Made by a program: the position numbers and the translations under genes
Notes under the pieces: model-generated
The model's input: only the letters and a program-made list of their open reading frames with translations
What the model was told of the DNA's origin: nothing
The model's database searches: none
Part shown: in pieces, positions 3,555 to 27,976 of the stretch
Numbering within the stretch: position 1 is the stretch's first letter
Layout of the letters: each line of letters opens with the position of its first letter
Origin: a virus
Virus record (IMG/VR): IMGVR_UViG_3300009183_006007
Coordinates: 11,197 to 75,196 of that record
Reading direction: 5' to 3' (one strand)
DNA length: 64,000 bases

Positions 3555-4121
3555 ATGAGAATTATAAAATACACAGAGTTTATTAAAGAAGAATTTACAG
3601 ACACTCCAGAATCATATATTGAGGTAGCTCTTAAACAAATTAAGAAGAAAATCGACAAGATGTTTGAATTTCAAGAGGCTATTGATACTGAACCATCTGA
3701 TGAAGAAGAAGGTGATAAAGAAATCAGAAAAGCTAAATTAGATAGTAAGAAGAAGTCAGAGATGTCATTCAAAGATTTGGGTGTGAGACTTGAAAGTTCG
3801 GAGATATCAAAATATTCTAAACTTCATGACTCTTTAACTATTAAATTTTCAGATGATGAAGCAACTTATAGCTTACTTATATCAATTGACTTAAAAGATG
3901 CTCTACCAAAAGATCCAAATGGTGACTATTCATATGAAGACATTGAGAAATGTTATATGAAACTAAAGAAATATAATCTTGATACATTTGAAGTTATTGG
4001 TCAAATAACTAAAAATGTTGAGATTAAGAAAATTGACGAAGATTTCCTAATTAGTTTAAAAATTGATATGGATGATAAATTCGGAGATGATGAAGAATTT
4101 GAAATTGAAACCAATGATTAA
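3555..4121 (+). CDS. hypothetical protein with capsid-targeting-like leader (MRIIKYTEFIKEE)
   Basis: 188-aa ORF directly after an AATATATA box. Confidence 0.75.
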   Translation: MRIIKYTEFIKEEFTDTPESYIEVALKQIKKKIDKMFEFQEAIDTEPSDEEEGDKEIRKAKLDSKKKSEMSFKDLGVRLESSEISKYSKLHDSLTIKFSDDEATYSLLISIDLKDALPKDPNGDYSYEDIEKCYMKLKKYNLDTFEVIGQITKNVEIKKIDEDFLISLKIDMDDKFGDDEEFEIETND

Positions 4122-4319
4122 AAAGTATAAAGAATTTTCAATTAACTTGGCATATGTCTTGGAGTAATAGAAGAAATTATGAATTCGACTATGATGTTAA
4201 GTTAGTTGATAATAAGATACATCTTATTTATAAACAGATGTTTCAACTTGATAGACATAATCGCAGAATAGAACCTGAAAATTAATAAAGGAGACATCAT
4301 TTATTTTAATAAATAGTGT

Positions 4320-4838
4320 ATGGTATATAATGTAGTAACAAATGCGATGGTTATGAATGAAGTAAAAAAATGTAGATACTTCAAAATGAATCTTGGTCTC
4401 GCAGCAACAGTCGATAAAGGAGTTAAAAGAGATTACAATGATAAAGATAAGTTCTCTTATAACTATTCAAATACTTATAAAACATTTATTTACGCTCAAG
4501 GTAATGTTGGTGATATAAAATTTTATATTGACCATTATATTAAAGATCCAGTAATGGCAGTTTATTACTCTGATAATTTTGAGGAGTTTTTATTTGATAT
4601 TGATTTTAATCAAATAAAAGAAAAAGGAATAGATGGATTTTTAGGATATATCTTGAAAGAAGTAGATACTCAATATGAGGAAAGACTAAAAGAAAATACT
4701 TTAAAGAAAGCTGAACCTAAAAAATCTGGTAATCCTGATTTAGTTCTTCAAAATCCAGGAGCCGTAACATATGAAGATTTGAAAGCTTATTTAGAAATAG
4801 AAAGATCACAAAGATATAAAAATAATAATCAGTTATGA
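4320..4838 (+). CDS. hypothetical protein
   Basis: 172-aa ORF overlapping the endolysin start. Confidence 0.7.
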   Translation: MVYNVVTNAMVMNEVKKCRYFKMNLGLAATVDKGVKRDYNDKDKFSYNYSNTYKTFIYAQGNVGDIKFYIDHYIKDPVMAVYYSDNFEEFLFDIDFNQIKEKGIDGFLGYILKEVDTQYEERLKENTLKKAEPKKSGNPDLVLQNPGAVTYEDLKAYLEIERSQRYKNNNQL

Positions 4839-5794
4839 AATTAAGTAGAGTGCTAACAATATCGATGTCTGGAGATGATGTAACATTTCTACAGACTAAT
4901 TTAAAAAACTTTGGTTTCTTAAAAGAAAGAATTGATGGTTATTTTGGACAGAATACACTTGTGGCTGTTACAAACTTCCAAAGAAAGATGAACATAAAGG
5001 CCGATGGTGTTGTGGGTTCTTTAACTTGGAGTAAAATGATAAACTATGGTAAACCAGTAGAAGTTAAAGTAGTATCAGTTCCGAAATATGAAGACATACC
5101 ACTTAAAGTTTCTCATATTGGTGAGAGTGGTTTTAAAATATACGATTGTTTATTATCTGATGATGAATATATTAAAACAGAAACTAGAAAAGAAACAATC
5201 TATTTACATCACACCGCTGGTGGTTCTAGACCGGATTGGACTGTAGGTGGTTGGGAAAAAGATACTGATAATAATGGAAATTCATTAAAAGTTGCAACAG
5301 CTTATGTCATAGGTAGAAAGTCATCGTCTTCAAATGAAACCATATGGGATGGTAAGATTATAAGAACATTTGATGATAGATATTGGGCTTATCATTTAGG
5401 TATTAAAAAAGATAATGTTGAATTAAACTCAAAATCAATTGGTATAGAAATTTGTAATTATGGTCCACTTACTAAAAGAGGTGATGTTTTTTATAACTAT
5501 GTTAATAAACCAATTCCTGAAAGTGATGTTGTTAAATTAGATAAACCATTTAGAGGGTATCAATATTATGAGAAATACACAGAATATCAAATAGAAAGTC
5601 TTAGATTGTTACTTCTTTATTTATCAAATAGATGGGGTATAGAATTTGAAAAAGGTATTTATAACGAAGAGTGGTTTGAATATAATGACAAATGGTTTAC
5701 AAATGGTGGATTAAGAAGTCACACACAAGTTAGAAAAGATAAAATTGACGTATTTCCTCAACCAGAGTTAATCCAGATGTTAAATAGTCTTTAA
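4835..5794 (+). CDS. endolysin: peptidoglycan-binding domain plus Amidase_2
   Basis: GDDVTFLQ..IDGYFGQNT..FQ..ADGVVGSLT (PG_binding_1); LHHTAG, WAYHLG, SIGIEI and SHT..RKDKID (zinc amidase). Confidence 0.9.
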   Translation: MKLSRVLTISMSGDDVTFLQTNLKNFGFLKERIDGYFGQNTLVAVTNFQRKMNIKADGVVGSLTWSKMINYGKPVEVKVVSVPKYEDIPLKVSHIGESGFKIYDCLLSDDEYIKTETRKETIYLHHTAGGSRPDWTVGGWEKDTDNNGNSLKVATAYVIGRKSSSSNETIWDGKIIRTFDDRYWAYHLGIKKDNVELNSKSIGIEICNYGPLTKRGDVFYNYVNKPIPESDVVKLDKPFRGYQYYEKYTEYQIESLRLLLLYLSNRWGIEFEKGIYNEEWFEYNDKWFTNGGLRSHTQVRKDKIDVFPQPELIQMLNSL

Positions 5795-6051
5795 TTATAG
5801 ATAATTGCTAAAGTCTTATAGATAATTATTTGATTTTCAGTAGAAAGTTCTTCAAAATCAATAAAGTAGTCTATATCATCATCTTCAAAAATGTGAAGTA
5901 GTATAACCTCTTCTTCTTCTAACCATTCAATAGAATTAAAGGTCATATCCCCGACGTTTATATCAATAACTAACTCATATAAACCTATACCTAATATTTT
6001 AATTAGGTCTCTTACTTTTTCCTTCATTCTTGACGAGATAATTTTTTTCAT
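5791..6051 (-). CDS. small acidic hypothetical protein
   Basis: 86-aa ORF behind a minus-strand AATATATA box. Confidence 0.6.
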   Translation of the reverse strand: MKKIISSRMKEKVRDLIKILGIGLYELVIDINVGDMTFNSIEWLEEEEVILLHIFEDDDIDYFIDFEELSTENQIIIYKTLAIIYN

Positions 6052-6142
6052 TTCTATATATATTATTGTGTTATAATATAAAAAAATATCAATATTGGAA
6101 TTTTCAAAATTAATATATATTGGTAGAAAATAATTTTAAAAT

Positions 6143-7402
6143 ATGTCAATATTAAGATATAATGATTACATCTCGGAGAAAATGGCTTATGAGATGATAC
6201 TTGAGTCAAAAGTTATCTATTCAAAGAAGTTTATTAATTTACTTAGTAAAATGAAAACGAATAAATTAGCAAAAGAATTATTAAACCTTTATTCAAAAGA
6301 TGTTGATGCTCTAACACAAAATTATATCGATATTACTGATGAAAAAGATGCTGTGAGTTTTACACCTGATAGAAAGGTTCAAGAATTAACTAAAGATAAA
6401 CCAGAAACTTGGTCTGTTACGGATTCTCAAAGATACTTAACTAAAAGTGATAGAAATAATAAAATATTTGAAGCTTTAGGATATGATAAAGAAAAATATG
6501 AATGTTGGGCACCAGAAGTAGATACAGTTGGATTAATACTTTCTGAGACAGTTAGTAGATCATCTGGTAAAATATATGTAATGTTTCAAGAGTATAAAGC
6601 AACAGATGAACCTAGAATCGGTGTTATTAACAAAGATGCTTTGGAATTATCAGATGCTGAAGATATGAGAATTTGGTCAACATCAAGAAATCCAATTAAA
6701 ATAGGTAGACTAGTAAGAGCTATTTTAAATGCCGCTAAAATTACATTTGTTGATAAAGACATTGAAGATTTTACAAATACATATAAAGCAACTTATGACT
6801 TTGCTAAAGATGCTCTTAGACAATTTGATATTGTTAAAGGTGATAAGATTGCTTATTGGTATAATCAAGATAATTATGTAGATGGTGGTGGTTCTTTAAA
6901 TAACTCTTGTATGGCTGATGTAGATACTGATGATTATTTTGATATTTATACACAAAATCCTCAAGTATCACTTGTTATTCTTTATGGAGATACTGGTGTT
7001 ATAGATGGTGATAAGTATAGTGCCGATCTTATTAAAGGAAGAGCAATTCTTTGGGATTGTAAATTAGATGGTCAACCCGTTAAATTTATGGATAGAGTAT
7101 ATACTACTCACGATTCTGATGTTGAGTTATTCAAACAATTTGCTGAAAAGAATGGATGGTGGTATAAAAAATCACAATCTATGGAACCAAGTGAAAAATT
7201 AACAAATGGTTCAGATGTTAAAAAAGGAGTAATAATTGCTAATCTTAATGATACTGACTTTAATTATTATCCTTATTGTGACACTATGTGTTATATTGAT
7301 AGTGAATCAGGTGTTGTTTCAAATACATATTGGGATGATTCTAATAAACTTTTAAGAGATACTGGAGGTGAGTATGAAGATTCATATGATATGGAAGATT
7401 AA
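6143..7402 (+). CDS. hypothetical protein, paralog of 56985..58856
   Basis: Shared SRNxxxxGR, SLNNSCM, GRAILW, FMDRVYT and YPYCDT motifs. Confidence 0.8.
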   Translation: MSILRYNDYISEKMAYEMILESKVIYSKKFINLLSKMKTNKLAKELLNLYSKDVDALTQNYIDITDEKDAVSFTPDRKVQELTKDKPETWSVTDSQRYLTKSDRNNKIFEALGYDKEKYECWAPEVDTVGLILSETVSRSSGKIYVMFQEYKATDEPRIGVINKDALELSDAEDMRIWSTSRNPIKIGRLVRAILNAAKITFVDKDIEDFTNTYKATYDFAKDALRQFDIVKGDKIAYWYNQDNYVDGGGSLNNSCMADVDTDDYFDIYTQNPQVSLVILYGDTGVIDGDKYSADLIKGRAILWDCKLDGQPVKFMDRVYTTHDSDVELFKQFAEKNGWWYKKSQSMEPSEKLTNGSDVKKGVIIANLNDTDFNYYPYCDTMCYIDSESGVVSNTYWDDSNKLLRDTGGEYEDSYDMED

Positions 7403-7409
7403 ATAATAA

Positions 7410-7437
7410 AAAAACCCAGTCAAATAACTGGGTTTTT
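7410..7437. terminator. bidirectional terminator (ACCCAGT family)
   Basis: AAAAACCCAGT-CAAATA-ACTGGGTTTTT. Confidence 0.85.
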
Positions 7438-7558: not shown

Positions 7559-9451
7559 TTACTTAACTTCTTCATAAGATGTATCTTCAACGTCTCCACC
7601 GCCATTACCATTGTCAGTGCTTTCGTTAGAACTTTGTGGTTCTTCTTGAGATTGTTGATATAATCTTGTACTAATTGTTTGCCAAGTTTCATTTAACTTA
7701 TTAGATGTTTCATCAATTGATGTTACATCTTTTTCTGAGTGAGCCTTTTTCAAAGCATCTAAGTCAGTATTAAGTAAAGACTTATCTTCATCAGTCAACT
7801 TATCAGAAAATTCTTTGATTTGTTTTTCTGTTTGGAAGATAAGATTATCAGCCATGTTTACTTTGTCAACCAATTCTCTTTCGAGACGATCAGACTCAGC
7901 ATTTAACTCAGCCTCAGCTTTCATTTTTTCAATTTCCTCTTTAGATAGTTGAGAACCACCTTCAATTCGGATTTTGTTTTCTTTACCACTAGCTTTATCT
8001 TTAGCAGATACAGATAGAATACCATTAGCATCAATATCTAATGTTACTTCTACTTGAGGAATACCTCTCGGAGCTGGCATGATACCATCAAGATGGAATC
8101 TACCTAACGAACGGTTATCCTTAGCCATTGGTCTTTCACCTTGTAGAACGTGAATTTCTACAGATGGTTGATTGTCAGAAGCTGTTGAGAACGTTTCAGA
8201 CTTACGGGTCGGAATTGTTGTATTAGCTTCAATCAACTTAGTCATCACACTACCCATAGTCTCAATACCTAAAGATAGAGGTGTTACATCAAGAAGAAGA
8301 ACATCAGTAATACCACCACTCAAAACAGCTCCTTGAATAGCCGCTCCTAAAGCAACAACTTCATCAGGGTTAACAGATTTGTTTGGTTTCTTACCTAAGT
8401 ACTTCTCAATTGCTTCTTGAATAGAAGGTATTCTTGTAGAACCACCAACAAGAATTACTTCATCAATGTCAGATGGTTTAAGTCCTGCATTCTTCAAAGC
8501 ACTTTTAGCACAAGCGATAGCTCTATCAACAAGACTTGAGGTCATTTGATCAAACTTAGCTTTAGTTAATTGTTTAACGAAGTGTAAAGGAATACCATCT
8601 TTAGCAGTGATGTATGGAAGATTGATTTCTGATTGAGAAGTTGAAGATAATTCAATTTTCGCTTTCTCAGCAGCTTCTTTCAAACGTTGAAGACCCATAG
8701 CATCTTTTGAAAGATCCATTCCGTGTTCAGATTTGAATTCATCAACCATCCAAGTAATGATTGCGTTATCAAAGTCGTCACCACCTAAGTGAGTATCACC
8801 ATCAGTAGATTTAACTTCAAATACACCATCACCAATTTCTAGAACTGATACATCATGAGTACCACCACCACAATCGAATACTAAGATTTTAGAATCTGTA
8901 TTCTTTTTATCTAACCCGTAAGCTAGAGCTGCCGCAGTTGGCTCATTAATGATACGCTCAACTTTCAAACCAGCGATTTCACCAGCTTCAATAGTTGCAG
9001 TTCTTTCAGCGTCCCCGAAGTAAGCAGGAACCGTAATAACAGCTCTTTTTACTTCATATCCTAAATAGTCTTCAGCAGTTTTCTTCATTTTCTGAAGAAT
9101 CATTGCTGAGATTTCTTGTGGAGTGAAAGTTCTATCATCGATTTTAACACCTGGTACATTTTTACCAGCTTTAACAACTTCATAAGGAACTCTCGTTACC
9201 TCATCAGTGCAAGCTGAAAAATCTTTACCAATGAACCTCTTAATAGAGTAAACAGTATTTTTTGGATTGGTAACTGCTTGTCTTTTAGCGGGGTCTCCAA
9301 TTTTTCTATCTTTGTCGGTAAATCCGACAACTGAAGGAGTTGTTCTTTTCCCTTCAGAGTTGGTGATTACGATTGGTTCACCACCTTCAACTACAGCTAC
9401 ACATGAGTTTGTAGTTCCTAAGTCAATTCCAATAATTACGTCTTTTGCCAT
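7559..9451 (-). CDS. dnaK: Hsp70 chaperone DnaK
   Basis: [39 protein letters not shown] and NPDEVVA motifs. Confidence 0.98.
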
Positions 9452-9483
9452 ATTTATTTTTTCTTTTTTTTATTACTATTATA

Positions 9484-9583: not shown

Positions 9584-9853
9584 ATGAAATTTATAAAAGA
9601 ATGGTCTGAATGGAATCCTACATTAAATAAGGAAGTTTTAGATTTTGTTGAAACCAATAAAGTGAACTTAAGACATCTTTGGAAAGATGATATGAGTGAA
9701 GAAGAAAATATGAAATTCTTAATAGATTACTTTACTGAATACCCAGATGAAATGACTTCTTCTATAAAGACTGACAAAATTAAATCAGTAACACCTATAT
9801 CCGGTATTAAAAATGCGGTTCCGACTCTTCAAAATATTGGAGGTGTTTGTTAA
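9584..9853 (+). CDS. hypothetical protein
   Basis: 89-aa ORF after a TTATATATA box; MKFIKEW leader variant. Confidence 0.65.
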   Translation: MKFIKEWSEWNPTLNKEVLDFVETNKVNLRHLWKDDMSEEENMKFLIDYFTEYPDEMTSSIKTDKIKSVTPISGIKNAVPTLQNIGGVC

Positions 9854-10116
9854 ATATTAACTAAACTTTTTTCATTCCATTTTTCTAATGGAATTGAAAT
9901 TAAAGATTTTGTAAAATGCTCGTGTGATTTTCTTTGTTCTTCGGTTCCTCTATTAAAGTTCCAAAATTTAGCATCATCAGATGAGCATTGTAAAGTAACT
10001 GATCTTCCACCACCATCTGTTCTATATAGTCTAGAACCACAAATACTACATTTATAATTTGTATTCATTTCATTTAGTTGGTTAAAAAATGATTCATATT
10101 TAGTTAAGTGCTTCAT
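9850..10116 (-). CDS. small zinc-ribbon protein with leader MKHLTKYES
   Basis: CSICG..C motif. Confidence 0.65.
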   Translation of the reverse strand: MKHLTKYESFFNQLNEMNTNYKCSICGSRLYRTDGGGRSVTLQCSSDDAKFWNFNRGTEEQRKSHEHFTKSLISIPLEKWNEKSLVNI

Positions 10117-10142
10117 TATTACTATATATAAAATTAAAATAG

Positions 10143-11474
10143 TTAATTATCATCAGATTCTTCCGGATCTTGAAAGAACAAGGTTTTATCCTTTGTTTGT
10201 AACCATTCTCTAGATAGATTTAATCTCTTAGTTAAATCTCTTAACCAAGTCTTAGCCATTTCATATGGTTCACATCTTTGTAATGATTTCTCATATCTTT
10301 CCATACCACCATAGATTTTAAGAATATCTTCTTTAGATAACTTTCTCATATCATCAGCTTTAACCATAGCCATTACAAAACTAAAGTTTGTGTTATCTTT
10401 TTCCTGTAAGGCATAATCTTTTCTAGAAATACCAGAATTGATATATTGTTTATAAGCCTTTTCAATATCTACTGATTTATCAGTTAAAGCCTTTTTCACA
10501 ATAGAAATAATTTTGTTAATTCTAATATGTGCTTCTTTTTCATCTTCTGGAACTTGTCCTAAGATATCATCTATCTTATCATCTAAGATATAACCAATAA
10601 TAATATGTTCTCTATATAAGTCTTCGGTAAGTAAACCATGACGTTCACAATACCAAGGAGTCTTCAACTTAAAGAAGAAGTCTCTTCCGTGTTCATCTTC
10701 ACAAGTAACAATTGAACCTTCTTTATCTACTTGAGTTGCAGTTAGTTCAATTAACTTGTCTAAGTCATGAATTTCATCTTCAAATGGAGCAACTCTAATA
10801 GAGCCAACTTTATCTAAGTGGTCTCTAATATCAATATGTTTACCAGTAACATTATCTCTTAATCTTAATAAGATTAATTCTTCACTTGGGTATCTTAGAA
10901 CAATACGATTGTTTGGTGCCACATATTCAAAAATTGGCACGATATTATTATTCAAAGCCCAATCAACTAAAGATTTAACTTCTTTATTAGTTTTATAAAC
11001 TCTGTTTATACCATCAGCTTGGTCATTATCAAATCCCATTTTGGATTTACCAATAACTTTACCATTTGGTAGTTTAATGAATGAAGCAATAGAACCATCT
11101 TCTTTGTTATTTACAAATTTGATTTTATAGTTCTTAACAACTGAATATAAAGAGTCAGGTACTTGATTTAAGTTAAAGAACTTTTCAAGTAAAACATATC
11201 TATTGAATAGGGAACCATCTTCATTAAAAACGAAAGTTAGTCCTCTCATTTCATAACCTTTCAATTCTGGTTTATCAGGAATAGGGTTAGAGAAGTCTTT
11301 GTATTGAGCAAGACGATAATTAAACACAGATACATTAAATCCATCAACAACCATCTTAGATTCATAAAATGGTGCTTCCTCACCTGAACATAACTCTACG
11401 GCTTGTTCATATGTTGGGATAGCGTTTATTGAAACACTTTCCTTTATAAACTCTGTATATCTAAATAATTTCAT
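10143..11474 (-). CDS. RNA ligase 1 (T4 RnlA family)
   Basis: FNYRLA, EMRGLTF, KFFNLNQ, motif I KEDGS, FEYVAPNNRIV, EG and FKLKTPWY. Confidence 0.9.
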   Translation of the reverse strand: MKLFRYTEFIKESVSINAIPTYEQAVELCSGEEAPFYESKMVVDGFNVSVFNYRLAQYKDFSNPIPDKPELKGYEMRGLTFVFNEDGSLFNRYVLLEKFFNLNQVPDSLYSVVKNYKIKFVNNKEDGSIASFIKLPNGKVIGKSKMGFDNDQADGINRVYKTNKEVKSLVDWALNNNIVPIFEYVAPNNRIVLRYPSEELILLRLRDNVTGKHIDIRDHLDKVGSIRVAPFEDEIHDLDKLIELTATQVDKEGSIVTCEDEHGRDFFFKLKTPWYCERHGLLTEDLYREHIIIGYILDDKIDDILGQVPEDEKEAHIRINKIISIVKKALTDKSVDIEKAYKQYINSGISRKDYALQEKDNTNFSFVMAMVKADDMRKLSKEDILKIYGGMERYEKSLQRCEPYEMAKTWLRDLTKRLNLSREWLQTKDKTLFFQDPEESDDN

Positions 11475-11486
11475 CTTTGTATATAT

Positions 11487-15284: not shown

Positions 15285-16352
15285 ATGAGTAAAGATTATT
15301 ACAAAGTACTAGGCGTAGATAAAAACGCTTCAGATGATGAAATAAAAAAAGCATATAGAAAAAAAGCTATGGAATTTCATCCAGACAAAAATCCGGATAA
15401 TCCAGAAGCAGAGTCTAAATTTAAAGAAGCTGCTGAAGCATATGATACATTATCATCACCGGATAAAAAAGCTAGTTATGATAGATACGGAACAACTGGT
15501 AACCCATTTGGTGGAGGTGGAAATCCATTTGGTGGAGGTGGATTTAATATGGAAGATATTTTTTCACAATTTGGTGATGTATTTGGAAATTCATTTAATC
15601 AAAGATATGGTGGTGGACAAAGACCACAAAGTAAAGGATCTAATCTAAGAATAAAAGTTAGTTTAACTATTGATGAGATTCTAAAAGGAGCAGTTAAGAA
15701 ATTAAAATATAAGAGACAAGATAAATGTAATTCTTGTAATGGTGTAGGTGGAACTGATCCAAGAACTTGTATTCCTTGTAATGGTTCTGGTCAAAGAACA
15801 ATTGTTCAAAACACACCATTCGGTCAAATCAGACAAGTCGCTACTTGTCCAGATTGTTCTGGTAGTGGTAAAGTTGTTGCTGTGAAATGTAACTCTTGTA
15901 GAGGTGAAGGAGTAAGTATTAAAGAACAAGTAGTTGATGTTGAAATCCCCAAAGGAGTTTCTAATGGAATGCAATTAACAATGCAGGGATTTGGTAACTT
16001 TATTAAAAATGGATCGGCTGGTGACTTACAAATTATAATAGAAGAAATAATTGACCACTCTTTTAGAAGAGAAAATAATAATATAGTTGTGGAAAAAACT
16101 ATATCTGTTATAGATGCTATTATTGGATCAAATATTAAAGTCTCAACACCACATGGTGAGATACCAATTGCTATTGAGCCAGGAACAGAACACGGAAAGG
16201 TTTATAGAGTATCAGGTAAAGGAATTCCAGATATTAATTATGGACTTGGTGATCTTTATGTTAAAATCAGTATTAAAATTCCAAAGAAAATTGAGTTGGA
16301 TGAAAAATACACTCTTGAGAAATTAAAATCTTCGAAAAACTTTTCAGTATAA
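15285..16352 (+). CDS. dnaJ: chaperone DnaJ (class A)
   Basis: J domain with HPD, G/F-rich region and four CxxCxGxG repeats. Confidence 0.97.
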
Positions 16353-16567: not shown

Positions 16568-16668
16568 TTTATATAGTTTTTTGTAGTGATTTATCTTATT
16601 TGTCTTACAAAGATATAAAAAATAAGTAGATTCTCCAAATTAATATATAAAGAAAATAAACATAATTT

Positions 16669-17482: not shown

Positions 17483-17878
17483 ATGAAACACTTAAAAAAA
17501 TTTAACGAATCATTAAAAGAACCAATTGATGTTGAATCTGATATTATCGAGTTCAAAGAAAAATTGGGTAAAGCTTATCATAACTTCTTTTTAAAAATGT
17601 ATGTCTATTCACCTGAAGAAGAATATGCTAAAGCAATGAATAATATAGAACACCTTATAGTATCTAATCCAACTATGACTGATGATTGGGATGTTTGGGA
17701 AGTTTATGGAACAGATGATTATGGTAGAAATTCTGGAACAATTATGAATGTTAGAGCTGTTTCTAAATTACATGCTAAAATTAAAGTAGCTACTATTAAA
17801 AATAATTTAGAAATATTAGCTACTGGTTACTACTCAGCATCTAAGACTTCTAAATCCGATTTCCATAGGTATATATAG
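17483..17878 (+). CDS. hypothetical protein with leader MKHLKKFNES
   Basis: 131-aa ORF downstream of the neck gene. Confidence 0.7.
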   Translation: MKHLKKFNESLKEPIDVESDIIEFKEKLGKAYHNFFLKMYVYSPEEEYAKAMNNIEHLIVSNPTMTDDWDVWEVYGTDDYGRNSGTIMNVRAVSKLHAKIKVATIKNNLEILATGYYSASKTSKSDFHRYI

Positions 17879-20449: not shown

Positions 20450-21406
20450 ATGGAACATATATTACAAGAAAACAAAGACCGTTTTGTAATGTTTCCCTTA
20501 AAATATCACGATATTTGGGAAATGTATAAAACTCAACAACATTCATTTTGGACTGCAGAAGAAATTGACTTAGCTCAAGATTTAACTGATTGGAATGAAA
20601 AATTAAATGAGAATGAACAACATTTTATTAAAATGGTTCTGGCTTTCTTTGCGGCATCTGATGGTATCGTAAATGAAAATTTGGCTGAGAACTTTTTGAA
20701 AGAGGTTCAGTATCCAGAGGCTAAATCATTTTATGGATTCCAAATTGCTATGGAGAATATTCATTCTGAAACATATTCTTTATTAATTGATACTTATATC
20801 AAAGATTCGGAAGAAAAAGATAGATTGTTTCACGCAATTGATAACTTTCCTTCTATTAAAGAAAAAGCTGATTGGGCTTTGAAATGGATTGAATCTGATT
20901 CACTTGATGAGAGATTAATTGCTTTTGCAGCAGTTGAAGGCATCTTCTTCTCAGGTTCATTCTGTTCTATCTTTTGGTTAAAGAAAAGAGGTTTAATGCC
21001 TGGTCTAGCATTTTCTAATGAGTTAATCTCTAGAGATGAGGCTTTACATTGTCAGTTTGCTTGTTTATTACATAATAGATATATTAAAGATAAAGTATCA
21101 GAGGAAAGAATCAAAGAAATCATCTGTTCAGCAGTTGATATTGAAAGATTATTTATTACAGAATCTTTACCGGTTTCTTTAATTGGAATGAATGGTAAAT
21201 TAATGGAACAATACATTGAGTTTACTGCAGACTTTTGGTTACAAGCATTAGGATGTTCAAAAGTTTACAATGTAGAAAATCCTTTCGACTTTATGGATAT
21301 GATTTCATTACAAGGTAAAACTAACTTCTTTGAAAAAAGAGTTGCTGAGTATCAAAAAGTATCAGACAAAGCAATTGACTTTGACAAATTAGATGATGAT
21401 TTTTAA
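20450..21406 (+). CDS. nrdB: ribonucleotide reductase class Ia beta subunit
   Basis: [40 protein letters not shown] and KTNFFE motifs. Confidence 0.96.
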
Positions 21407-21426
21407 TTAAATTATCTTAAAAAATT

Positions 21427-21455
21427 AAACCCACTTCAAAAGAGTGGGTTTTTTT
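21427..21455 (+). terminator. intrinsic terminator
   Basis: AAACCCACTT-CAAA-AGAGTGGGTTTTTTT. Confidence 0.8.
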
Positions 21456-21471
21456 ATTTAATATATATGTT

Positions 21472-21990
21472 ATGAAAATTATTAGGACACGATTGAAACC
21501 TTTTGGAGGGTCAGCTGAATTCATTTCTATGAAAGGAAAGATTAAATCCATCATTGAAAAAAACAAAGGAGATGTATTTCATTTTGTAATGGAAGATAGT
21601 GGTGTTAAAACCGTAAAAGAATTTGGACCGGAAAATATTAATCCAGAATTAGTAGGTCAATCTATTATTATCTGTGATGGACCTTGGATGGCACAATTTA
21701 ATGATGATGGTACAATTGATGTTGTAATTGGGACTAATGAATCATTACCTCGTCAACAATCTGTTGATCAACTTAAAAGAGTTATGAAGATGTCAGCAAA
21801 AACTGATATTGGTAATAGAATATCTGATATGAATAAACAAGGAGCTAATGTTCAATATATTCAGAATCCAATTGATTCAGGAATTGAATCATATGAAGAC
21901 TTTGAAAAAAAGAATAAATCATTTGTACCTTCTTGGAATCTTAAACATTTATTAAGTCCATTTTCAGGAGAATCAAAAAAGAAGAAATAG
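21472..21990 (+). CDS. hypothetical protein
   Basis: 172-aa ORF directly after a late box. Confidence 0.7.
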   Translation: MKIIRTRLKPFGGSAEFISMKGKIKSIIEKNKGDVFHFVMEDSGVKTVKEFGPENINPELVGQSIIICDGPWMAQFNDDGTIDVVIGTNESLPRQQSVDQLKRVMKMSAKTDIGNRISDMNKQGANVQYIQNPIDSGIESYEDFEKKNKSFVPSWNLKHLLSPFSGESKKKK

Positions 21991-22011
21991 AAAAAAAGAA
22001 ATAAAAAAAAT

Positions 22012-22728
22012 ATGAAACATTTAAAAACTTATAATCAAATGAATGAGGAAATATCCTTTAAAGGATTAGCCCCAATTTTAACATCTTTAATTATGACACT
22101 AAGTTCTTCAGATGTTGCTGCATTTGGTGGTGCATTTGGTGGACATGGTGGATTTGGTGGACATGGATTTGGTAATCCATATGCTAATAGAGGAGGTGGA
22201 CAAATTGGCAACGGAGAAGGAAACGGACAAATTGGTATCGGACAAATTAGTGATCCCGGATACAAAAGACAGGCATCTAGTATAATTCAATCTCAATCAA
22301 GAAATATAATTAATGATTTGGAAAAGATGAAATCAGTAACTGATGATCCTCAATTACTATCCTTAATTAGCTCAATTAGTGAGTTATCAAATTGGCAATA
22401 TTCTGAGGGTGTTGAACCGATTAATTTGGTTCTTGGTAAGTTGAGAGGTTATATTAAATCACATGATGTAAATGATGATGTAATAAATAGCACTTTAGAT
22501 CATTTATCAAAGGGTGATATTGATAATATTAAATCTGACTATAACAGATTGTTGACAGAATATGATGATATTATCGGACATGGTACTGGTAATGCTAGAT
22601 CTGGAAATGTTAGTGGATTTGTTACTGCTATAGATGTTTTAAATATTATTTTATGCTTGTTATTATCAGTTTTAGTATTAGTTGTGGGTAAAGGATTCTG
22701 GGATTTATGGAGAACTAAATCCTATTAA
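22012..22728 (+). CDS. Gly-rich membrane protein with leader MKHLKTYNQMNEE
   Basis: Hydrophobic segment after the leader, GGxFGGHG repeats and a C-terminal TM helix. Confidence 0.7.
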   Translation: MKHLKTYNQMNEEISFKGLAPILTSLIMTLSSSDVAAFGGAFGGHGGFGGHGFGNPYANRGGGQIGNGEGNGQIGIGQISDPGYKRQASSIIQSQSRNIINDLEKMKSVTDDPQLLSLISSISELSNWQYSEGVEPINLVLGKLRGYIKSHDVNDDVINSTLDHLSKGDIDNIKSDYNRLLTEYDDIIGHGTGNARSGNVSGFVTAIDVLNIILCLLLSVLVLVVGKGFWDLWRTKSY

Positions 22729-22741
22729 AAAATAAATAATT

Positions 22742-23350
22742 ATGAAATACTTAAAAAGATTTAACGAAAGTAATAGTACACCATTTAGAAGTAAACTTCT
22801 TTATAAAGATTCTAATATTGGTAAATATGAACTATATGTTGATGGTTCTACTGGATGGGGAATAATATTCCCTAATGGTTATATGGAAATTGAAGAGGGT
22901 CCACACGAGTCTGTTGGTTTTATGAATGGTGAAATAAATGGAGTTAGTATAGGAGCAAGAGGAAATGATGTACCTAGAATACCTGGAAAATATTGGGAAG
23001 GTAATATGTCAAGTGATGAATTGTCAAGATTTTTTGATAGGGTTATTAGCAAATACAATAATATCACTGAATCATCTGATGATTATAAAGATTTAAGTAT
23101 GTATAATCCATACTATAGTGATAAAGATGAAAGTGATAAAGATAATCTATTGAAATGGTATATGAAAGGATTTAATGATGAGTTAAGAGGAACAACCACA
23201 ATTGAATCAGACAATAAAATAGATATGGTTGCTTATAACTTAGGAGCACAACACGCCATAATTGGTGATGATGTTTCTAGTATTGATAATCTATCTGATG
23301 AAGAAATAATATCTATGATTGAAGATATTTATAATAAAAATCAAAAATAA
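22742..23350 (+). CDS. hypothetical protein with leader MKYLKRFNES
   Basis: 202-aa ORF. Confidence 0.72.
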   Translation: MKYLKRFNESNSTPFRSKLLYKDSNIGKYELYVDGSTGWGIIFPNGYMEIEEGPHESVGFMNGEINGVSIGARGNDVPRIPGKYWEGNMSSDELSRFFDRVISKYNNITESSDDYKDLSMYNPYYSDKDESDKDNLLKWYMKGFNDELRGTTTIESDNKIDMVAYNLGAQHAIIGDDVSSIDNLSDEEIISMIEDIYNKNQK

Positions 23351-23353
23351 GAT

Positions 23354-23644
23354 ATGAAATATTTAAAAACATTTGAATCATATGATAATGATATCGCTAC
23401 TCAGATAGCTGAAGACCTTTTACCAAAACTTCAAAAGCTTAGACAAGAGAAAGGTAAGTTTACCGTAGGCATGTTTGATAACTATATGGAAGAAAGAGGT
23501 GGTAATATGAAACTAACTGATGAAATTATGAGTATACTTGTAAGTATGGGATTTGATTTTGATCCATATGATGATGAAGATGATAATGAATATGGTGATG
23601 ATGATTTAGATGATCATCCACTTTTTTCATATAATAAGAATTAA
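23354..23644 (+). CDS. acidic hypothetical protein with leader MKYLKTFES
   Basis: 96-aa ORF. Confidence 0.7.
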   Translation: MKYLKTFESYDNDIATQIAEDLLPKLQKLRQEKGKFTVGMFDNYMEERGGNMKLTDEIMSILVSMGFDFDPYDDEDDNEYGDDDLDDHPLFSYNKN

Positions 23645-23674
23645 AAAAGAGAGACCAATTGGTCTCTCTTTTTT
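23643..23674. terminator. bidirectional terminator
   Basis: AAAAAAGAGAGACC-AATT-GGTCTCTCTTTTTT. Confidence 0.88.
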
Positions 23675-23846
23675 ATTTTAATACCATATACTTAACACCG
23701 TCAACAATCTTCACTTTATACTTTCCAGTATCTTCTGATTTGACTTTCTTCTCAGCTCTTTTGGTAGCCTTAGTTCCTTTGGTGCTTTTATCTACTTCAC
23801 CAAATTTATTCTTTAATACCTCTCTCATTGAAAATCTCTCAGTCAT
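23673..23846 (-). CDS. 57-aa basic protein not in the ORF track (MTERFSMREVLKNKF...KIVDGVKYMVLK)
   Basis: Translated by hand; TATATTTG promoter at 23871 and terminator at its end. Confidence 0.7.
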   Translation of the reverse strand: MTERFSMREVLKNKFGEVDKSTKGTKATKRAEKKVKSEDTGKYKVKIVDGVKYMVLK

Positions 23847-23916
23847 ATTTTTTAGTTTTTGTTTGTCTTACAAATATAAGGAATCTTTTTGAATAACAAT
23901 ATTAAATATATACAAT

Positions 23917-24357
23917 ATGAAATATCTTAAAGGATTTAACGAATCAATGGAAGAACAAATCTATAAACAAGTTCTTGATTCTATAAAAGATTGTTTTCAA
24001 GAGTTTGAGGATAATGGTTGGTATTGGATAGCGGATTCTTATTCAGGTACTTATCCAGGTATATCTATTTGGCAAAATCCAAACTTTAATTGTAGAATGA
24101 TGAATAAAGAAGAATCTGATCCAAGAAACTGGACTCTAAATAAAAATCCTTACGAAAAAAACATTGATATTACTGGTGAAATTAAATCAGATGGTTCTAT
24201 TAATTGGGAAATGAATGAAGACGAAACAGATAGTGAAGATGGTAAAGATTTTTTAGTTGCTGTAAAAAGATTACATGATGAAACTGGACTTGATTTCAAT
24301 TTCTCATATAATAATAGAGGTGGTGAAAGAAGAATAATAATACAAGGTAGAATATGA
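23917..24357 (+). CDS. hypothetical protein with leader MKYLKGFNES
   Basis: 146-aa ORF after a late box. Confidence 0.72.
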   Translation: MKYLKGFNESMEEQIYKQVLDSIKDCFQEFEDNGWYWIADSYSGTYPGISIWQNPNFNCRMMNKEESDPRNWTLNKNPYEKNIDITGEIKSDGSINWEMNEDETDSEDGKDFLVAVKRLHDETGLDFNFSYNNRGGERRIIIQGRI

Positions 24358-24752
24358 AAAGACTAAGAAAATTTAATGAGAGTGTATCTCAAATAGATTA
24401 TGATTATGTATATAGTTGTTTTGCTGAACTTATAGATGATAATAAAGCTGAGATAGAATTGATGCAAGGTGAATATGTTAAAGTACCATACATAACTATT
24501 AGATTAAAAACTATTCCTAAAATAGATCCTAGAACTACTAGTCAAGCAAAACCTATTGAAAATAAAAAGTCCTCTATCTATAATTATATTACAGGACATA
24601 ATAGTAATAATGAGTTATTACAAGAATTAGAAGTTAGTATAAATAGATTATCGGAAGAATATCCTGATTATAAATTACAATTTAATGATTGGGGTACTTC
24701 CATATTTATGGAAATATTTAAAAATACAGAAGAAGAAAAATATCCATTTTAA
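24354..24752 (+). CDS. hypothetical protein with leader MKRLRKFNES
   Basis: 132-aa ORF. Confidence 0.72.
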   Translation: MKRLRKFNESVSQIDYDYVYSCFAELIDDNKAEIELMQGEYVKVPYITIRLKTIPKIDPRTTSQAKPIENKKSSIYNYITGHNSNNELLQELEVSINRLSEEYPDYKLQFNDWGTSIFMEIFKNTEEEKYPF

Positions 24753-25291
24753 TGAAAATAAAGAATTATATACAATTTATAAAAGAATCATCTGGATATC
24801 AATACGGATGTGTAATGGTTGAAGTACCAGTAAGTAATTGGAATGAGATAACTAGTTATATCGATCCAGAAGATGTTTATACAGGAGGTGATGATACTCA
24901 CGGAATTCAAGAAAATCCACATGTTACTATATTATATGGTTTACATAAAGAAGTAACATCAGAGATGGTTAAATCAGTATTTGAAGGGTTTACAAAAGAC
25001 ATTAATATAGAAGTTAATGGTATTGACATCTTTGAAAATAAAGACTATGATGTTGTCAAGTTTAATGTTAATCCTGATGGTGCTCTTCAAGAACTACATG
25101 ATAAACTTTCTGAGTTTCCTAATTCAAATGATTTTCCGGATTACAAACCACATATAACAATTTCGTATGTTAAAAGTGGAACAGGTAAAAAATATGTTAA
25201 ACCAGATTATAAATATGAAGTTAAGAATGTTGATAAGATAACTTATTCAATGGTTGATGGTAATAAAATAAAATTCAAATATACTAAATAA
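24752..25291 (+). CDS. 2H phosphoesterase (Acb1/LigT-like) with leader MKIKNYIQFIKES
   Basis: Two HxT motifs: PHVTILYG and YKPHITISY. Confidence 0.82.
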   Translation: MKIKNYIQFIKESSGYQYGCVMVEVPVSNWNEITSYIDPEDVYTGGDDTHGIQENPHVTILYGLHKEVTSEMVKSVFEGFTKDINIEVNGIDIFENKDYDVVKFNVNPDGALQELHDKLSEFPNSNDFPDYKPHITISYVKSGTGKKYVKPDYKYEVKNVDKITYSMVDGNKIKFKYTK

Positions 25292-26547
25292 TGAAACATC
25301 TAACTCCATATAAAATATTTGAATCGATGTTTAAGTTAGACACTATAGCTAATCAGTTTATTACTGATATGTCTAAAGTTTATAATCTTAGATTTGGAGA
25401 ATCATTTGATAAAAATAAAGCCAATTGTGCTTGGTTTACTGGTGAGTTTTACAAATGGGCAAAATCAAAAGATTTGAATGTTAAAGTAGTTTACTTTGAT
25501 TCTAATATTGAAGCTCATATTGCTCCTATGATAGATGATAAAGTTATAGATTTTGCTATTAAACAATTTACTAAAAATCCTAATGATAATTATTTAATAC
25601 TTATACCAGAAGACTATAAGAAATATGGATATGATAAGTTTGAAATATATGATGAGATGCCTAAATTAGAAACTATTTTTTCGGCTGATAAAATTCAAGA
25701 ATCTAATCAAATGTATTATAGTATCTATGATTGGTTTGAAGATCTAAAAAGATATCAATGGTCAAAAAATCAAAAGTCAATGGTAAATGAATCATCACTA
25801 AATAAATGGTGTGATTATTTTGTTGGTGATGGTTATTGGGGAAAGATTAAAGATTTAGTTGATAAAATATTTATTTCTTTATCTAAAGTTGATACTGAGT
25901 ATATAAATGACAGAATGTATGATGTTTATGATGAGATACCTTCTGGTAAAGAAAAATGGACAATGTGTTGTGTTGCTTATGGTGGTTATGAAAATCATGA
26001 TAAACCAAATAAAGTAAAATACAATGGTGCGATTTATATTAAAAATCCTAAAGACGGTGATAAATTAGATATAATCATACACATTCTAAAAGAAATAGTT
26101 AGTCCAACATTAACAATTGGTTACCCTTCTTATGTAATAAGACAAAGTGATGAACAATTTTATGTTACTGATAAGAAATGGCAATGTAAAAACTTTAACA
26201 TCGATGACTATGGTATACAAGATGGATTTGAATATAAAACAGATGATAGAAGAGGTAAAGGTAATGTATATTCATCCGATATTAAAAATAAAAAAGATTA
26301 TTCTATTGATAAGATATTAGATATGTATAAACCTTGTATCGCTATTAACATAGGAGGATATCAAGATGCACACTCAACTGGTAAAATGAATATGAGAAAA
26401 TTAGAGTCCGATATAGATGAAGTTTTACCTTCTATTTTACCAACCTTAGATTATGAAGAAGTTATATTTGATTCTTCAAGAGGTGATAGAAGATTTGATG
26501 ATGATATAGATATTTATGAATACACAATTAAAATATTACTAAAATGA
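25291..26547 (+). CDS. multidomain hypothetical protein with leader MKHLTPYKIFES
   Basis: 418-aa ORF; N-terminal part has NC...H...D spacing like a papain/transglutaminase-fold triad. Confidence 0.7.
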   Translation: MKHLTPYKIFESMFKLDTIANQFITDMSKVYNLRFGESFDKNKANCAWFTGEFYKWAKSKDLNVKVVYFDSNIEAHIAPMIDDKVIDFAIKQFTKNPNDNYLILIPEDYKKYGYDKFEIYDEMPKLETIFSADKIQESNQMYYSIYDWFEDLKRYQWSKNQKSMVNESSLNKWCDYFVGDGYWGKIKDLVDKIFISLSKVDTEYINDRMYDVYDEIPSGKEKWTMCCVAYGGYENHDKPNKVKYNGAIYIKNPKDGDKLDIIIHILKEIVSPTLTIGYPSYVIRQSDEQFYVTDKKWQCKNFNIDDYGIQDGFEYKTDDRRGKGNVYSSDIKNKKDYSIDKILDMYKPCIAINIGGYQDAHSTGKMNMRKLESDIDEVLPSILPTLDYEEVIFDSSRGDRRFDDDIDIYEYTIKILLK

Positions 26548-27041
26548 AAATAAAAACATTCGAATCTTTTAATGATGAGTTCTCAGGTGAATGGGATGGA
26601 CCGAGATGGCAACAACATTTTAAAAGGTTGAAAGAAGATCCTGATTATAAGATTAGATGGATAGAACACCGAGATTCACAAGTTAAGGAATATTGGATGA
26701 GTCTTAAACCATTTGAAAAGGAATCTGATGTGCCTGATTTACCAAATCCATTAAACGACTTTTATAAACAAAGAATTATAGAACTAGGTGGTATTCCTAA
26801 ATCCGAGTTAGAAGATGGTCAATGGTATTATGGTAACTTTAGAAATTCAGACTTAGGTAAGTGGGATTCTGAGAAACAAGAATTTGGACATTGGAGATAT
26901 AAATTTGGACACAGATGGGACACTTGTAATCATTTCGAAGATGATAATAGATATGCACTTTTTGTTCCATTAAGAAAAGCTAACAATGAAGAGTTAGAAT
27001 CAATTAAAAAAATAGAAAATGAAGCATCTAAAAACATATAA
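26544..27041 (+). CDS. Trp-rich hypothetical protein with leader MKIKTFES
   Basis: 165-aa ORF. Confidence 0.7.
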   Translation: MKIKTFESFNDEFSGEWDGPRWQQHFKRLKEDPDYKIRWIEHRDSQVKEYWMSLKPFEKESDVPDLPNPLNDFYKQRIIELGGIPKSELEDGQWYYGNFRNSDLGKWDSEKQEFGHWRYKFGHRWDTCNHFEDDNRYALFVPLRKANNEELESIKKIENEASKNI

Positions 27042-27288
27042 AATATTTGAGTGGGTTGAAGTTAGTAATAAACTTGAGAAGAAATTTGAATTTAAGGATT
27101 TCTTACAAGCTCTTAAATTCATAAATGAACTTTCTAAAATTTGTGAAGAGCAAAATCATCACCCCGAAATAAATTGGATTTATAATAAAGTGAAACTTAC
27201 TTTATCTACACACGATGCTGGTGATATTGTTACAAAAAAAGATTTAAAATTATCAAAGTCAATTGATGAAATACTTAAAAACATATAA
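27019..27288 (+). CDS. pterin-4-alpha-carbinolamine dehydratase with leader MKHLKTYKIFE
   Basis: FKDFLQALKF, NHHPEI and LSTHDAG motifs. Confidence 0.9.
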   Translation: MKHLKTYKIFEWVEVSNKLEKKFEFKDFLQALKFINELSKICEEQNHHPEINWIYNKVKLTLSTHDAGDIVTKKDLKLSKSIDEILKNI

Positions 27289-27976
27289 ACTATTCGAATC
27301 AGTTATTACTGAATTTGAATTTCCTACAGAATTGGATATTCAAGAACTATTCTATGATCTAACAGATGAAGATACAAACTCTAAATGTAAATTATATTCA
27401 TCAGGTTATCAGTTTTTTACAACAGATAATATAACAAGATCTATTAGAAGTCAATTATTCTCCGATATGAGTTTTGAAGAAAACTGGATAAATAAAGAAT
27501 GTGAAGATACTCAAGATACTTGGAAAAATATGTTTATTGATTTATCTAAACCTGTATCAAATGATATGATTAAATTGGCTGTTAGAAATTATAATGATGT
27601 TTATTTTTTAGAGGTTGAAGAATCAAAAAATAGTGCTGGTAAAAGTTATCTTGAAAGATTACAAGAAAATATATTAAATGATATTATTCCGGCTTATCCA
27701 ATTATTTATTTAAATCTAGGTCTTTTTCATCCAGATAAATTACCAGTAGTTGTAGAGTGTTTACAAAGATTATATGAAGTAACTGGGTTTAGACCAACTT
27801 CATCAGTTTGGGCTGAAGATTATGTAGATGAGGAAACAGGAGATCTTGTTACTTTTTATGGAGCTGACTTACAACTTTATAAAGTAAATGATATAGAATA
27901 TCAGAATCTATGTAAGATTGTTGGAAGAATAAATCCAAATAATAAAACACAAGAAGTAACTAAACATTTTTTATGA
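27266..27976 (+). CDS. hypothetical protein with leader MKYLKTYKLFES
   Basis: ORF 27263..27976; second Met preferred as start. Confidence 0.72.
   Translation: MKYLKTYKLFESVITEFEFPTELDIQELFYDLTDEDTNSKCKLYSSGYQFFTTDNITRSIRSQLFSDMSFEENWINKECEDTQDTWKNMFIDLSKPVSNDMIKLAVRNYNDVYFLEVEESKNSAGKSYLERLQENILNDIIPAYPIIYLNLGLFHPDKLPVVVECLQRLYEVTGFRPTSSVWAEDYVDEETGDLVTFYGADLQLYKVNDIEYQNLCKIVGRINPNNKTQEVTKHFL

Follow-up and report, generated by a model that had tools for sequence, protein, structure and literature searches.

A short N-terminal leader on many unrelated proteins of Mahaphage-type huge phages resembles the capsid-targeting sequence of phage T4

About 16 unrelated genes in a 64-kb stretch of viral DNA open with a common peptide of 9-13 residues, which resembles the capsid-targeting sequence (CTS) of phage T4. 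The stretch, called the window in the following, comprises positions 11,197 to 75,196 of the IMG/VR virus record IMGVR_UViG_3300009183_006007, a contig of 75,196 bp with a G+C content of about 28%. The common peptide, called the leader, is specific for the N-terminus, is a peptide-level feature, is portable, and has two parts. We propose that it is a CTS-like prohead-targeting propeptide that would be removed by Glu-specific cleavage and that has been greatly expanded in this phage group, and we assign a probability of about 0.5 to this reading. Docking, cleavage, packaging and injection of the tagged proteins are steps that we infer from the sequences. In the literature on CTS-like leaders in huge phages or megaphages no description of the present leader was found.

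The leader occurs in two forms. Type A reads M-K-[Y/H]-[L/I]-K-x-[F/Y], followed by E-S, N-E-S or K-[L/I]-F-E-S, and the register-shifted type B reads M-x2-4-Y-x-[E/Q/D]-[F/Y]-I-x-E-[S/E]. Among 157 leaders, 152 (97%) have Leu or Ile at position 4, and 151 (96%) have Phe or Tyr at position 7. When 163 distinct type-A leaders were selected on residues 1-7 only, 161 (99%) turned out to have a Glu at positions 8-14, compared to 39% of the untagged proteins. The leader thus consists of a constant head and a Glu-terminated tail. The Glu occupies three registers (8, 9 and 11), is followed at P1' by Ser (47%), Asn (18%) or else mostly Glu, Ala or Gly, and is preceded at P2 and P3 mostly by Phe, Leu, Ile, Tyr or Asn. 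Homologues of a tagged 2H phosphoesterase illustrate the relationship between the two forms: nearly all of the 120 homologues listed, down to an identity of 56%, keep the type-B leader, and one of those listed bears the type-A leader MKYLKKYKLFE in its place. Judged from these homologues, types A and B are interchangeable. In an AlphaFold2 (AF2) model of the 2H enzyme, residues 1-14 form a short free helix with a predicted local distance difference test score (pLDDT) below 50, the fold starts at residue 19 with values mostly above 90, and the Foldseek matches are Acb1, LigT and Usb1. The model thus depicts the leader as a flexible appendage to a complete enzyme fold.

The leader was originally predicted from the window, and each of the 15 peptides listed in that original prediction was found at its quoted start codon. 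Six-frame translation of the 75-kb contig revealed ten matches to MK[HYR]L[KRT].[FY], all of which represent the first ATG of a long open reading frame (ORF), whereas Markov-2 simulations yielded 0.07 matches. For the type-B pattern M..Y.[EQD][FY]I.E four matches were found versus none in the simulations. A hidden Markov model (HMM) of the leader, trained on 157 leaders from relatives and used with a threshold of at least 10 bits, retrieved 15 first-ATG N-termini on the contig, but none of 384 internal Met sites. A 40-kb sample of the Prevotella phage Lak-A1 (25% G+C, same host phylum) gave one weak match, and 49 kb of T4 gave none. Therefore, AT-richness is not the cause of the leader, and the simulations, the internal Met sites and Lak-A1 contradict the concern that the pattern might be no commoner than in shuffled AT-rich N-termini. 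The members at 6143 and 11474 have type-B leaders and receive low scores from the mainly type-A HMM. Two further members that had been named as weaker, 9584-9853 (+; MKFIKEWSEW, 4.9 bits) and 56985-58856 (+; MISKYNSFSL, 5.0 bits), are indistinguishable from background and remain unsupported. Conversely, two members had been missed, a NUDIX hydrolase gene at 56266-56898 (-) with the leader MATIKKFNQFNTSE (11.8 bits) and, on the contig shortly before the window begins (L001:6485-8011), an ORF of 508 aa that starts with MNYIQKYNEWENISE. The DNA upstream of the members is not conserved, the Leu codons of the leader differ (TTA, CTT and CTA), and the codon use at the conserved leader positions tracks that of the genome. 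Therefore, the constraint acts on the peptide.

The leader is frequent in relatives of the window phage. In a relative of 476 kb (G001, 97% complete) 72 of the 643 genes score at least 10 bits (about 11%), and 100 score at least 6 bits. The 304 distinct tagged proteins from all loci that were fetched can be grouped into 143 families, of which 106 are singletons and the largest have 33, 17 and 16 members across loci; at least seven different Pfam folds are represented. The claim that the tagged proteins are unrelated was borne out by BLASTP, which found no match (E<=0.01) among 17 tagged proteins after removal of residues 1-15. The identifiable cargo of the window consists of an Rnl1-type RNA ligase, the 2H phosphoesterase, a pterin-4a-carbinolamine dehydratase and the NUDIX hydrolase. 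About 60 of 70 tagged G001 proteins are without a Pfam family, and those with one include a PolyA_pol head domain (CCA-adding type), NUDIX, DeoC, RNase_T, OmpA-like, AAA_33/zeta-type kinase and Toprim_2. Searches of the unannotated tagged ORFs against Pfam (eleven ORFs) and PHROGs (eight ORFs), and with the tagged ORF upstream of the window, found almost nothing. Leader variants such as MRNIKKFNEF and MKGYIKLFEE are present in distant genomes of 636 and 735 kb, and a degenerate DNA pattern for MK[HY]LKxFNE matched at least 100 IMG/VR stretches, many of them on contigs of 100-676 kb.

A conserved gene of 451 aa, two genes downstream of the capsid gene (G001 64612-65967, with orthologues in L101-L180), is particularly instructive with respect to portability. 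An extension of 18-45 residues that bears the leader (MDKLLKYNQLFES..., MNLLKYSQIFEAG...) is present in about 12 of about 48 full-length orthologues, and the rest are without it; therefore, the tag has been gained and lost on one and the same gene. The C-terminal two-thirds of this gene also has shorter paralogues nearby (N-termini e.g. TFLSLT.KTYPHGHEEEVL). These results bear on the explanation that the N-termini are alike merely through common descent, or through exon-like duplication, within one large paralogous family and serve no present function. The large size of some tagged families and the location of tagged genes in tandem arrays fit such an origin, but the 143 families are devoid of detectable similarity and span the Pfam folds mentioned above, the leader is kept down to 56% cargo identity and is gained and lost on orthologues, and its Glu is retained in 99% of cases, so that a mere relic is very improbable. 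Paralogy itself was rejected because of the 143 families and the lack of similarity beyond residue 15.

The T4 CTS is present on IPI, IPII, IPIII and Alt (Mullaney and Black, 1996, cited from the reviews PMC9026906 and PMC5694885). A stretch of ten residues is enough for targeting, and in IPIII positions 4 and 7 serve targeting and positions 8 and 10 processing (PMC9026906). At least ten CTS-type proteins have been described across the T-even phages (PMC12373910), and it has been argued that the CTS may be a general route for T4-like phages to load varied proteins (PMC9026906). In the T4 record IPII and IPIII start with MKTYQEFIAE, and IPI (MKTFKEFTSTTTPVSTITE) starts with MKTFKEF. The present leader shares several features with the CTS: both are short N-terminal peptides (10-19 residues in T4) common to otherwise unrelated proteins, positions 4 and 7 are hydrophobic or aromatic in both, both end in x-x-Glu, and the genes lie in variable clusters in both cases. 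The head module of the clade likewise comprises a gp20-type portal, a gp21-like protease and a gp23-type capsid protein, and the type-B sequence Y-T-E-F-I-K-E-S is close to Y-Q-E-F-I-A-E-A of T4. There are also clear differences. A genome of this group has 72-100 carriers compared to 3-4 in T4, i.e. 20-30 times more, and the predominant form MK[YH]LKx[FY] uses another register and has its Glu at three alternative distances. T4 internal proteins are small and basic. In contrast to these small basic anti-restriction proteins, the cargo considered here is acidic and includes enzymes (RNA ligase, 2H, NUDIX, CCA-adding type, kinase and pterin dehydratase).

A head module of the T4 type was identified in the relatives. 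G001 encodes a T4-type large terminase, a portal protein (Portal_T4, 4.7e-59) and a Gp23 capsid protein (5.8e-27), and a protein of 720 aa is encoded directly upstream of the capsid gene (G001 59876-62038, L071), as in the arrangement of T4 genes 21 and 22 ahead of a Gp23-type gene. Its residues 1-170 align with T4 gp21 (PDB 5JBL; PF03420), including the LIE/IIE near the N-terminus (KPVLIIE/EPQLLIE) and the motifs GE..HP (GEFDHP/GELNHP) and VSSR (VSSR/VSSR). T4 gp21 (5jbl_A) ranked first in a profile search of the PDB with the 720-aa protease, with an E-value of 0.16, and the only significant Foldseek matches of the protease model were three T4 gp21 chains of 5JBL (E 4e-5 to 1e-4), followed by mostly herpesvirus proteases with non-significant E-values. 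Since the AF2 model of the protease domain has a low confidence (pLDDT 57), this fold match is supporting evidence only. In the remainder of the 720-aa protein, a unit of 14 residues (I-x-Y-S-E-Y-[L/I]-A-E-N-L-D-K-N) is repeated in tandem about ten times, and there are also an acidic tract rich in His, Glu and Asp and a helical tail. It looks scaffold-like, and a prohead protease thus appears to be fused to a repeat-rich acidic region, unlike in T4, which has separate genes 21 and 22. A search with the relatives' capsid protein against the PDB using phmmer gave no match.

The endings of the leader recur in this module. The 720-aa protein has five N-E-S sites, which are 84-100% conserved in 63 orthologues, whereas 0.16 are expected from the rate in the proteome (P 8e-7), and it is the only protein of G001 with at least four such sites. 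The first of them, K-T-L-N-E|S169, aligns with K-E-I-T-E|S188 of T4 gp21, at the end of the protease domain. The repeats carry [L/I]-A-E-[N/H], and the candidate sites within the protein thus read N-E-S and [LI]-A-E-N, which differs from T4 gp21; T4 gp22 holds S-I-F-E-S and E-L-F-E-S. The N-terminal propeptide of the capsid protein is T4-like (K-K-W-x-P-V-L-E-N), and a conserved H-S-I-N-E-N-A-Y is located about 40 residues before the conserved core. The most frequent leader endings, F-N-E-S and [L/I]-F-E-S, thus match in kind the conserved Glu sites of the protease-scaffold protein and the capsid propeptide, whose T4 counterparts are known substrates of the prohead protease. A pattern that was formulated post hoc, Y.[EQD][FY][ILV].E[SNHEA], has ten matches in the scaffold repeats, eleven at N-termini, and a single one at any other place in 140,000 residues. 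Mimicry of the scaffold by the leader is treated as a lead only.

The tagged genes share a promoter-like box, presumably of the late type, with the capsid genes. The sequence ATATATA, in extended form T-T-A-A-T-A-T-A-T-A-[C/A], lies at most 35 nt upstream of 168 of the 643 G001 genes, compared to 7 expected, and its distance to the ATG is bimodal, either 4-6 nt or 20-25 nt. The box precedes the G001 genes for terminase, portal, protease-scaffold and capsid as well as many genes of more than 900 codons. On the contig of the window, it is absent upstream of the genes for gp32 and dCMP deaminase, the probable DnaK gene, and an ORF at 20450-21406, which we take to be ribonucleotide-reductase-like. 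The predicted co-occurrence of the leader with the box was confirmed in G001: 51% of the tagged genes have a box of their own versus 23% of the untagged genes (P 1e-6), and, with a crude assignment of transcription units, 88% versus 40% lie in units headed by a box (P 1e-14). Conversely, TAnnTTTG motifs, which probably mark early genes transcribed by the host polymerase, precede 10% of the tagged and 33% of the untagged genes (P 2e-5). The enrichment behind the box and the depletion behind TAnnTTTG, together with replication-type genes that have no box, indicate that the leader is not equally common on early genes, which had been named as a result that would speak against a capsid tag. Two claims about the arrangement in the window had to be modified. 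It was stated that nearly all members are downstream of an AATATATA-type box; all 15 indeed belong to units headed by a box, but only five have their own, and ten are operon-internal. The ten tagged genes between 22012 and 27976, thought to form one tandem array, are all present and are distributed over two units with three and seven genes, respectively.

Composite cassettes are found at 21427-21471 and 29211-29262 of the window, in which a G+C-rich terminator-like hairpin is followed by an ATATATA box and the ATG, with only 4 nt between box and ATG; examples also occur in relatives. They are similar to the PeSL cassettes of T4-like phages (PMC2839356, PMC4122927) in that a terminator-like hairpin and then a promoter-like box are located at the borders of variable arrays; in the window, by contrast, the box resembles that of late genes, and its distance to the ATG is 4-6 nt. 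On the basis of this spacing, a large class of late mRNAs may be leaderless. The single public RNA run that matched contains contigs of relatives only, mostly with less than 95% identity, and is no proof of transcription or of start sites. In metagenome contigs of relatives, breakpoints were observed at the starts of leader genes (low stringency, short flanks); these joints may be artefacts of the shared leader.

Such features would be compatible with a shared start that operates at the level of the nucleic acid, as an optimum for translation initiation or for leaderless mRNAs, or as a recombination cassette by which genes are shuffled, without a role of the peptide: many boxes are found at the short distance that suggests leaderless mRNAs, cassettes of terminator and box flank the arrays, and the breakpoints coincide with gene starts. 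This is contradicted by the genome-like codon use and the unconserved upstream DNA, by the 10 of 15 window members that are operon-internal, seven of which have a start codon overlapping the upstream gene, by 49 untagged genes that also have a near-spaced box, and by the Glu, which changes its register while the amino acid pattern stays. A function of the nucleic acid can hence be given very little credence. The mRNA-level variant was discarded on the grounds of codon usage and the operon-internal members.

According to another explanation, the leader is a propeptide that times or activates late enzymes in the cytoplasm; either the head protease or a different protease with Glu specificity would cut behind the Glu, and neither packaging nor injection would take place. 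The two-part structure with a Glu in 99% of the leaders and the common late-type promoter agree with this possibility, and the leader abuts or replaces the start of the catalytic domain, at residue 19 in the 2H enzyme and at profile position 17 in the pterin dehydratase. However, T4-type prohead proteases are known to become active only inside assembled proheads, a flexible peptide of 9-13 residues is unlikely to inhibit 143 different folds, and the conserved residues 1-7 would be left without a reason. Activation in the cytoplasm is thus regarded as improbable.

If the leader is a prohead-targeting propeptide, a simple mechanism can be envisaged. Through residues 1-7 (M-K-[Y/H]-[L/I]-K-x-[F/Y]) the protein would bind to the scaffold core while the prohead is being assembled, and the type-B form M-x2-4-Y-x-[E/Q]-F-I-x-E would act likewise. 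At the [F/L/I/N]-E-[S/N] that follows, the gp21-type prohead protease would cut after Glu, the cut would free the cargo inside the head, and the freed cargo would enter the host together with the DNA. Precedents exist in giant phages. In phiKZ, 201phi2-1 and SPN3US, ejection and inner-body proteins have long N-terminal propeptides, and giant phages pack tens of proteins, which amount to more than 40 MDa in SPN3US (PMC5694885, PMC7411985). In these phages, a gp21-homologous protease with a preference for Glu removes N-terminal propeptides that are thought to target the proteins to the prohead, and a similar process is proposed here. The propeptides of the giant phages differ from the leader in that they are mostly 79-275 residues long, have no common short consensus, and are cleaved at S/A/G-x-E. 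Furthermore, about 8-19 proteins are processed in those phages, compared to a sequence-readable tag of 9-13 residues on about 11% of the genes here.

Several observations weigh against prohead targeting. The 72-100 tagged genes among 643 are far above any documented packaged set. The tagged cargo is more acidic than the other proteins, with a median isoelectric point (pI) of 5.07 versus 5.97 and 69% of the values below 6, and a median pI of 5.07 sets it apart from the T4 IP family, which is small, basic, DNA-associated and directed against restriction. For the pterin dehydratase, DeoC aldolase and NUDIX cargo, an advantage of being injected is not obvious. Cargo that is exposed to the protease would be expected to avoid internal cleavage motifs, but NES, NE[SN] and [FLIYM].E[SN] were not depleted within the tagged proteins, and the ratio of observed to expected was 1.0. 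About 10% of the tagged genes, including the NUDIX gene of the window, look early by their host-type motifs. The 75-kb contig is without head genes, so the protease link is drawn from relatives, in which the Pfam S77 match of the 720-aa protein (20.5-22.9 bits) is below the curated cut-off of 27 and the model of the protease domain is of the low confidence mentioned above. No cultured relative was found. The similarity between type-B leaders and the scaffold repeats is seen with the post hoc pattern, but not with an HMM built only from type-B leaders, which scored the repeats with just 2.5 bits and thus within background. Taken together, the modular, greatly expanded capsid tag that had been predicted is supported in part: the T4-like positions 4, 7 and Glu, the head module, the common box and the flexible attachment to a complete fold speak in favor of it, and the acidic cargo with its metabolic-type enzymes and the lack of motif avoidance speak against it.

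Several of these points would be accommodated if the leader were a tag for sorting, docking or turnover by a phage machinery other than the prohead, e.g. the phage's DnaK/DnaJ chaperones, a ClpS-type adaptor after N-terminal processing, the assembly of tails or other late structures, or a compartment that has escaped recognition; the Glu motif would in this case be used by the machinery in question. The tag is N-terminal, portable and acts at the peptide level, many cargoes are acidic enzymes of the cytoplasmic type, and 72-100 tagged proteins are many for a capsid cargo. Potential partners are present: the contig presumably encodes a DnaJ (15285-16352, +) and a probable DnaK (Hsp70; 7559-9451, -), both of which were read from typical N-terminal sequences only, and G001 encodes a ClpS-like protein of 94 aa. 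This ORF (40370-40654, -) contains the motif YKLILHNDDHNTFDWV, which we take to be a ClpS motif and thus indicative of an N-degron adaptor, and it is preceded by an ATATATA box. Yet nothing ties the leader specifically to DnaK or ClpS. It is without a contiguous hydrophobic core of the kind bound by DnaK, and the start M-K keeps its Met, so that no N-degron would be exposed. In addition, the likeness to the T4 CTS and the return of the near-invariant Glu-Ser/Asn ending in both the protease-scaffold protein and the propeptide of the capsid protein are explained together only by the prohead reading. Service to another machinery is therefore considered rather unlikely.

Due to the resemblance of the leader to the head-loading tag of T4, the phage may deliver an unusually large set of ready-made enzymes together with its DNA. 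In its widest form, the prohead-targeting reading would mean that Mahaphage-type phages use a sequence-readable capsid-address code, descended from or convergent with the T4 CTS, by which about one tenth of the proteome is loaded and delivered. This generalization is tentative, and we rate its chances as somewhat short of even. The load would comprise RNA-repair enzymes (Rnl1-type ligase, kinase and CCA-adding type), a 2H/Acb1-like phosphoesterase and NUDIX. Should it be true, metagenome sequences would directly reveal which proteins are injected by uncultivated huge phages, and hundreds of candidate early-acting effectors would become accessible, 143 families of which are already contained in the loci fetched. 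It would be the largest pre-formed arsenal for host takeover and counter-defence known for any phage, and it would help to explain what the extra capsid volume and genes of huge phages are used for. Furthermore, the CTS principle would be old and widespread in phages with T4-type heads, and a short natural tag would be at hand for the loading of foreign proteins into phage heads beyond T4 and E. coli. If another machinery is served, the leader would still be an undescribed tag that an entire clade of phages attaches to about 11% of its proteins.

The tagged genes of the window differ in leader type and in context. At 3555-4121 (+) an ORF of 188 aa has the type-B leader MRIIKYTEFIKEE (10.5 bits) and a box at 3544-3550, 4 nt before the ATG; it has no Pfam or PHROG match. 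The ORF of 419 aa at 6143-7402 (+) has a box at 6113-6119, 23 nt before the ATG, and a divergent type-B leader (MSILRYNDYISE, 5.9 bits); its probable counterpart in the 476-kb relative has 410 aa and starts with MSVLKYGDFISEK (16.2 bits). On the minus strand, an ORF of 88 aa at 9850-10116 starts with the type-A leader MKHLTKYES (13.1 bits) and has its own box at 10123-10129, and the Rnl1-type RNA ligase of 443 aa at 10143-11474, also with its own box (11480-11486), has the type-B leader MKLFRYTEFIKES and matches RNA_lig_T4_1 with residues 76-275 (8.9e-20). An ORF of 131 aa at 17483-17878 (+; MKHLKKFNES, 22.8 bits) is the second gene of a unit headed by a box at 16643-16649.

Unit 1 of the tandem genes (21472-23644) is headed by the box at 21461-21467 (+), directly after the terminator-like hairpin at 21427-21451. 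Its three tagged genes, all on the plus strand, encode proteins of 238 aa (22012-22728; MKHLKTYNQMNEE, 20.9 bits), 202 aa (22742-23350; MKYLKRFNES, 23.2 bits) and 96 aa (23354-23644; MKYLKTFES, 22.5 bits), and another terminator-like hairpin follows at 23642-23675. The box at 23906-23912 (+) heads unit 2 (23917-28110), which contains seven tagged genes on the plus strand with overlapping stop and start codons. The first two encode 146 aa (23917-24357; MKYLKGFNES, 17.2 bits) and 132 aa (24354-24752; MKRLRKFNES, 17.8 bits). They are followed by the LigT/Acb1-like 2H phosphoesterase of 179 aa (24752-25291; type-B leader MKIKNYIQFIKES; Pfam 2_5_RNA_ligase2 9.2e-11, Acb1 2.1e-9), an ORF of 418 aa (25291-26547; MKHLTPYKIFES, 10.2 bits) and an ORF of 165 aa with the short leader MKIKTFES (26544-27041; 12.6 bits; phrog_18490, function unknown). 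Next is the pterin-4a-carbinolamine dehydratase of 89 aa (27019-27288; MKHLKTYKIFEW, 24.3 bits; Pterin_4a 9.4e-24), residues 11-85 of which match positions 17-91 of the profile, i.e. the leader replaces the first 16 profile positions. The last tagged gene encodes 236 aa from the ATG at 27266 (27266-27976; MKYLKTYKLFES, 25.2 bits). The NUDIX hydrolase introduced above has 210 aa (Pfam NUDIX 5e-16), and its gene is located behind a TAnnTTTG motif and not behind an ATATATA box.

The window encodes T4-type replication proteins, namely gp32 (28222-29187), the large subunit of topoisomerase II, dCMP deaminase and a 5'-3' exonuclease, and likewise NusG and UvdE. Its gp32 is 80-81% identical to that of the 635-642-kb 'uncultured phage' genomes LR745206 and LR756502, 35-45% to that of genomes of 636-735 kb, and about 27% to that of the Prevotella Lak phages. 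In IMG/VR, 69 loci are related to the window, and their contigs reach lengths of 508 kb. Based on the gp32 identities and these loci, the window is classified as a fragment of a Mahaphage-type huge phage. Public sequencing runs that contain the stretch stem from freshwater and lake metagenomes of 17 studies. The host is probably a member of the Bacteroidota, as indicated by the TAnnTTTG promoter motifs, which we assume to resemble the -7 element of the Bacteroidota housekeeping promoter, and by a type-IX-secretion sorting domain. The TAnnTTTG motif (e.g. TAGTATATTTGTAAGAC) recurs upstream of the minus-strand genes ending at 3381, 12138, 12966, 23846, 53825, 55377 and 56898. The sorting domain (Por_Secre_tail, 5.4e-7) forms the C-terminus of one of two proteins with signal-peptide-like N-termini that are encoded just upstream of the window (L001:3546-6397), the first of which is preceded by an ATATATA box.

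A few further features of the window were noted. A DOT1-like methyltransferase domain (1.9e-20) is encoded at 164-847 (+), the UV-damage endonuclease UvdE (1.3e-48) at 2455-3381 (-), and there are two tRNA genes, for tRNA-Met (CAT) at 53263-53335 (-) and for tRNA-Gln (TTG) at 63901-63973 (-). Between 34073 and 51088 about 20 minus-strand genes follow each other in a row with a very low G+C content of 24-27%. One of the N-termini in this run is like that of a flavin-dependent sugar mutase (MMYDYLIVGSGLFGS) and another like that of a Rossmann-type sugar epimerase or dehydratase, and the run probably represents a glycan or nucleotide-sugar cluster.

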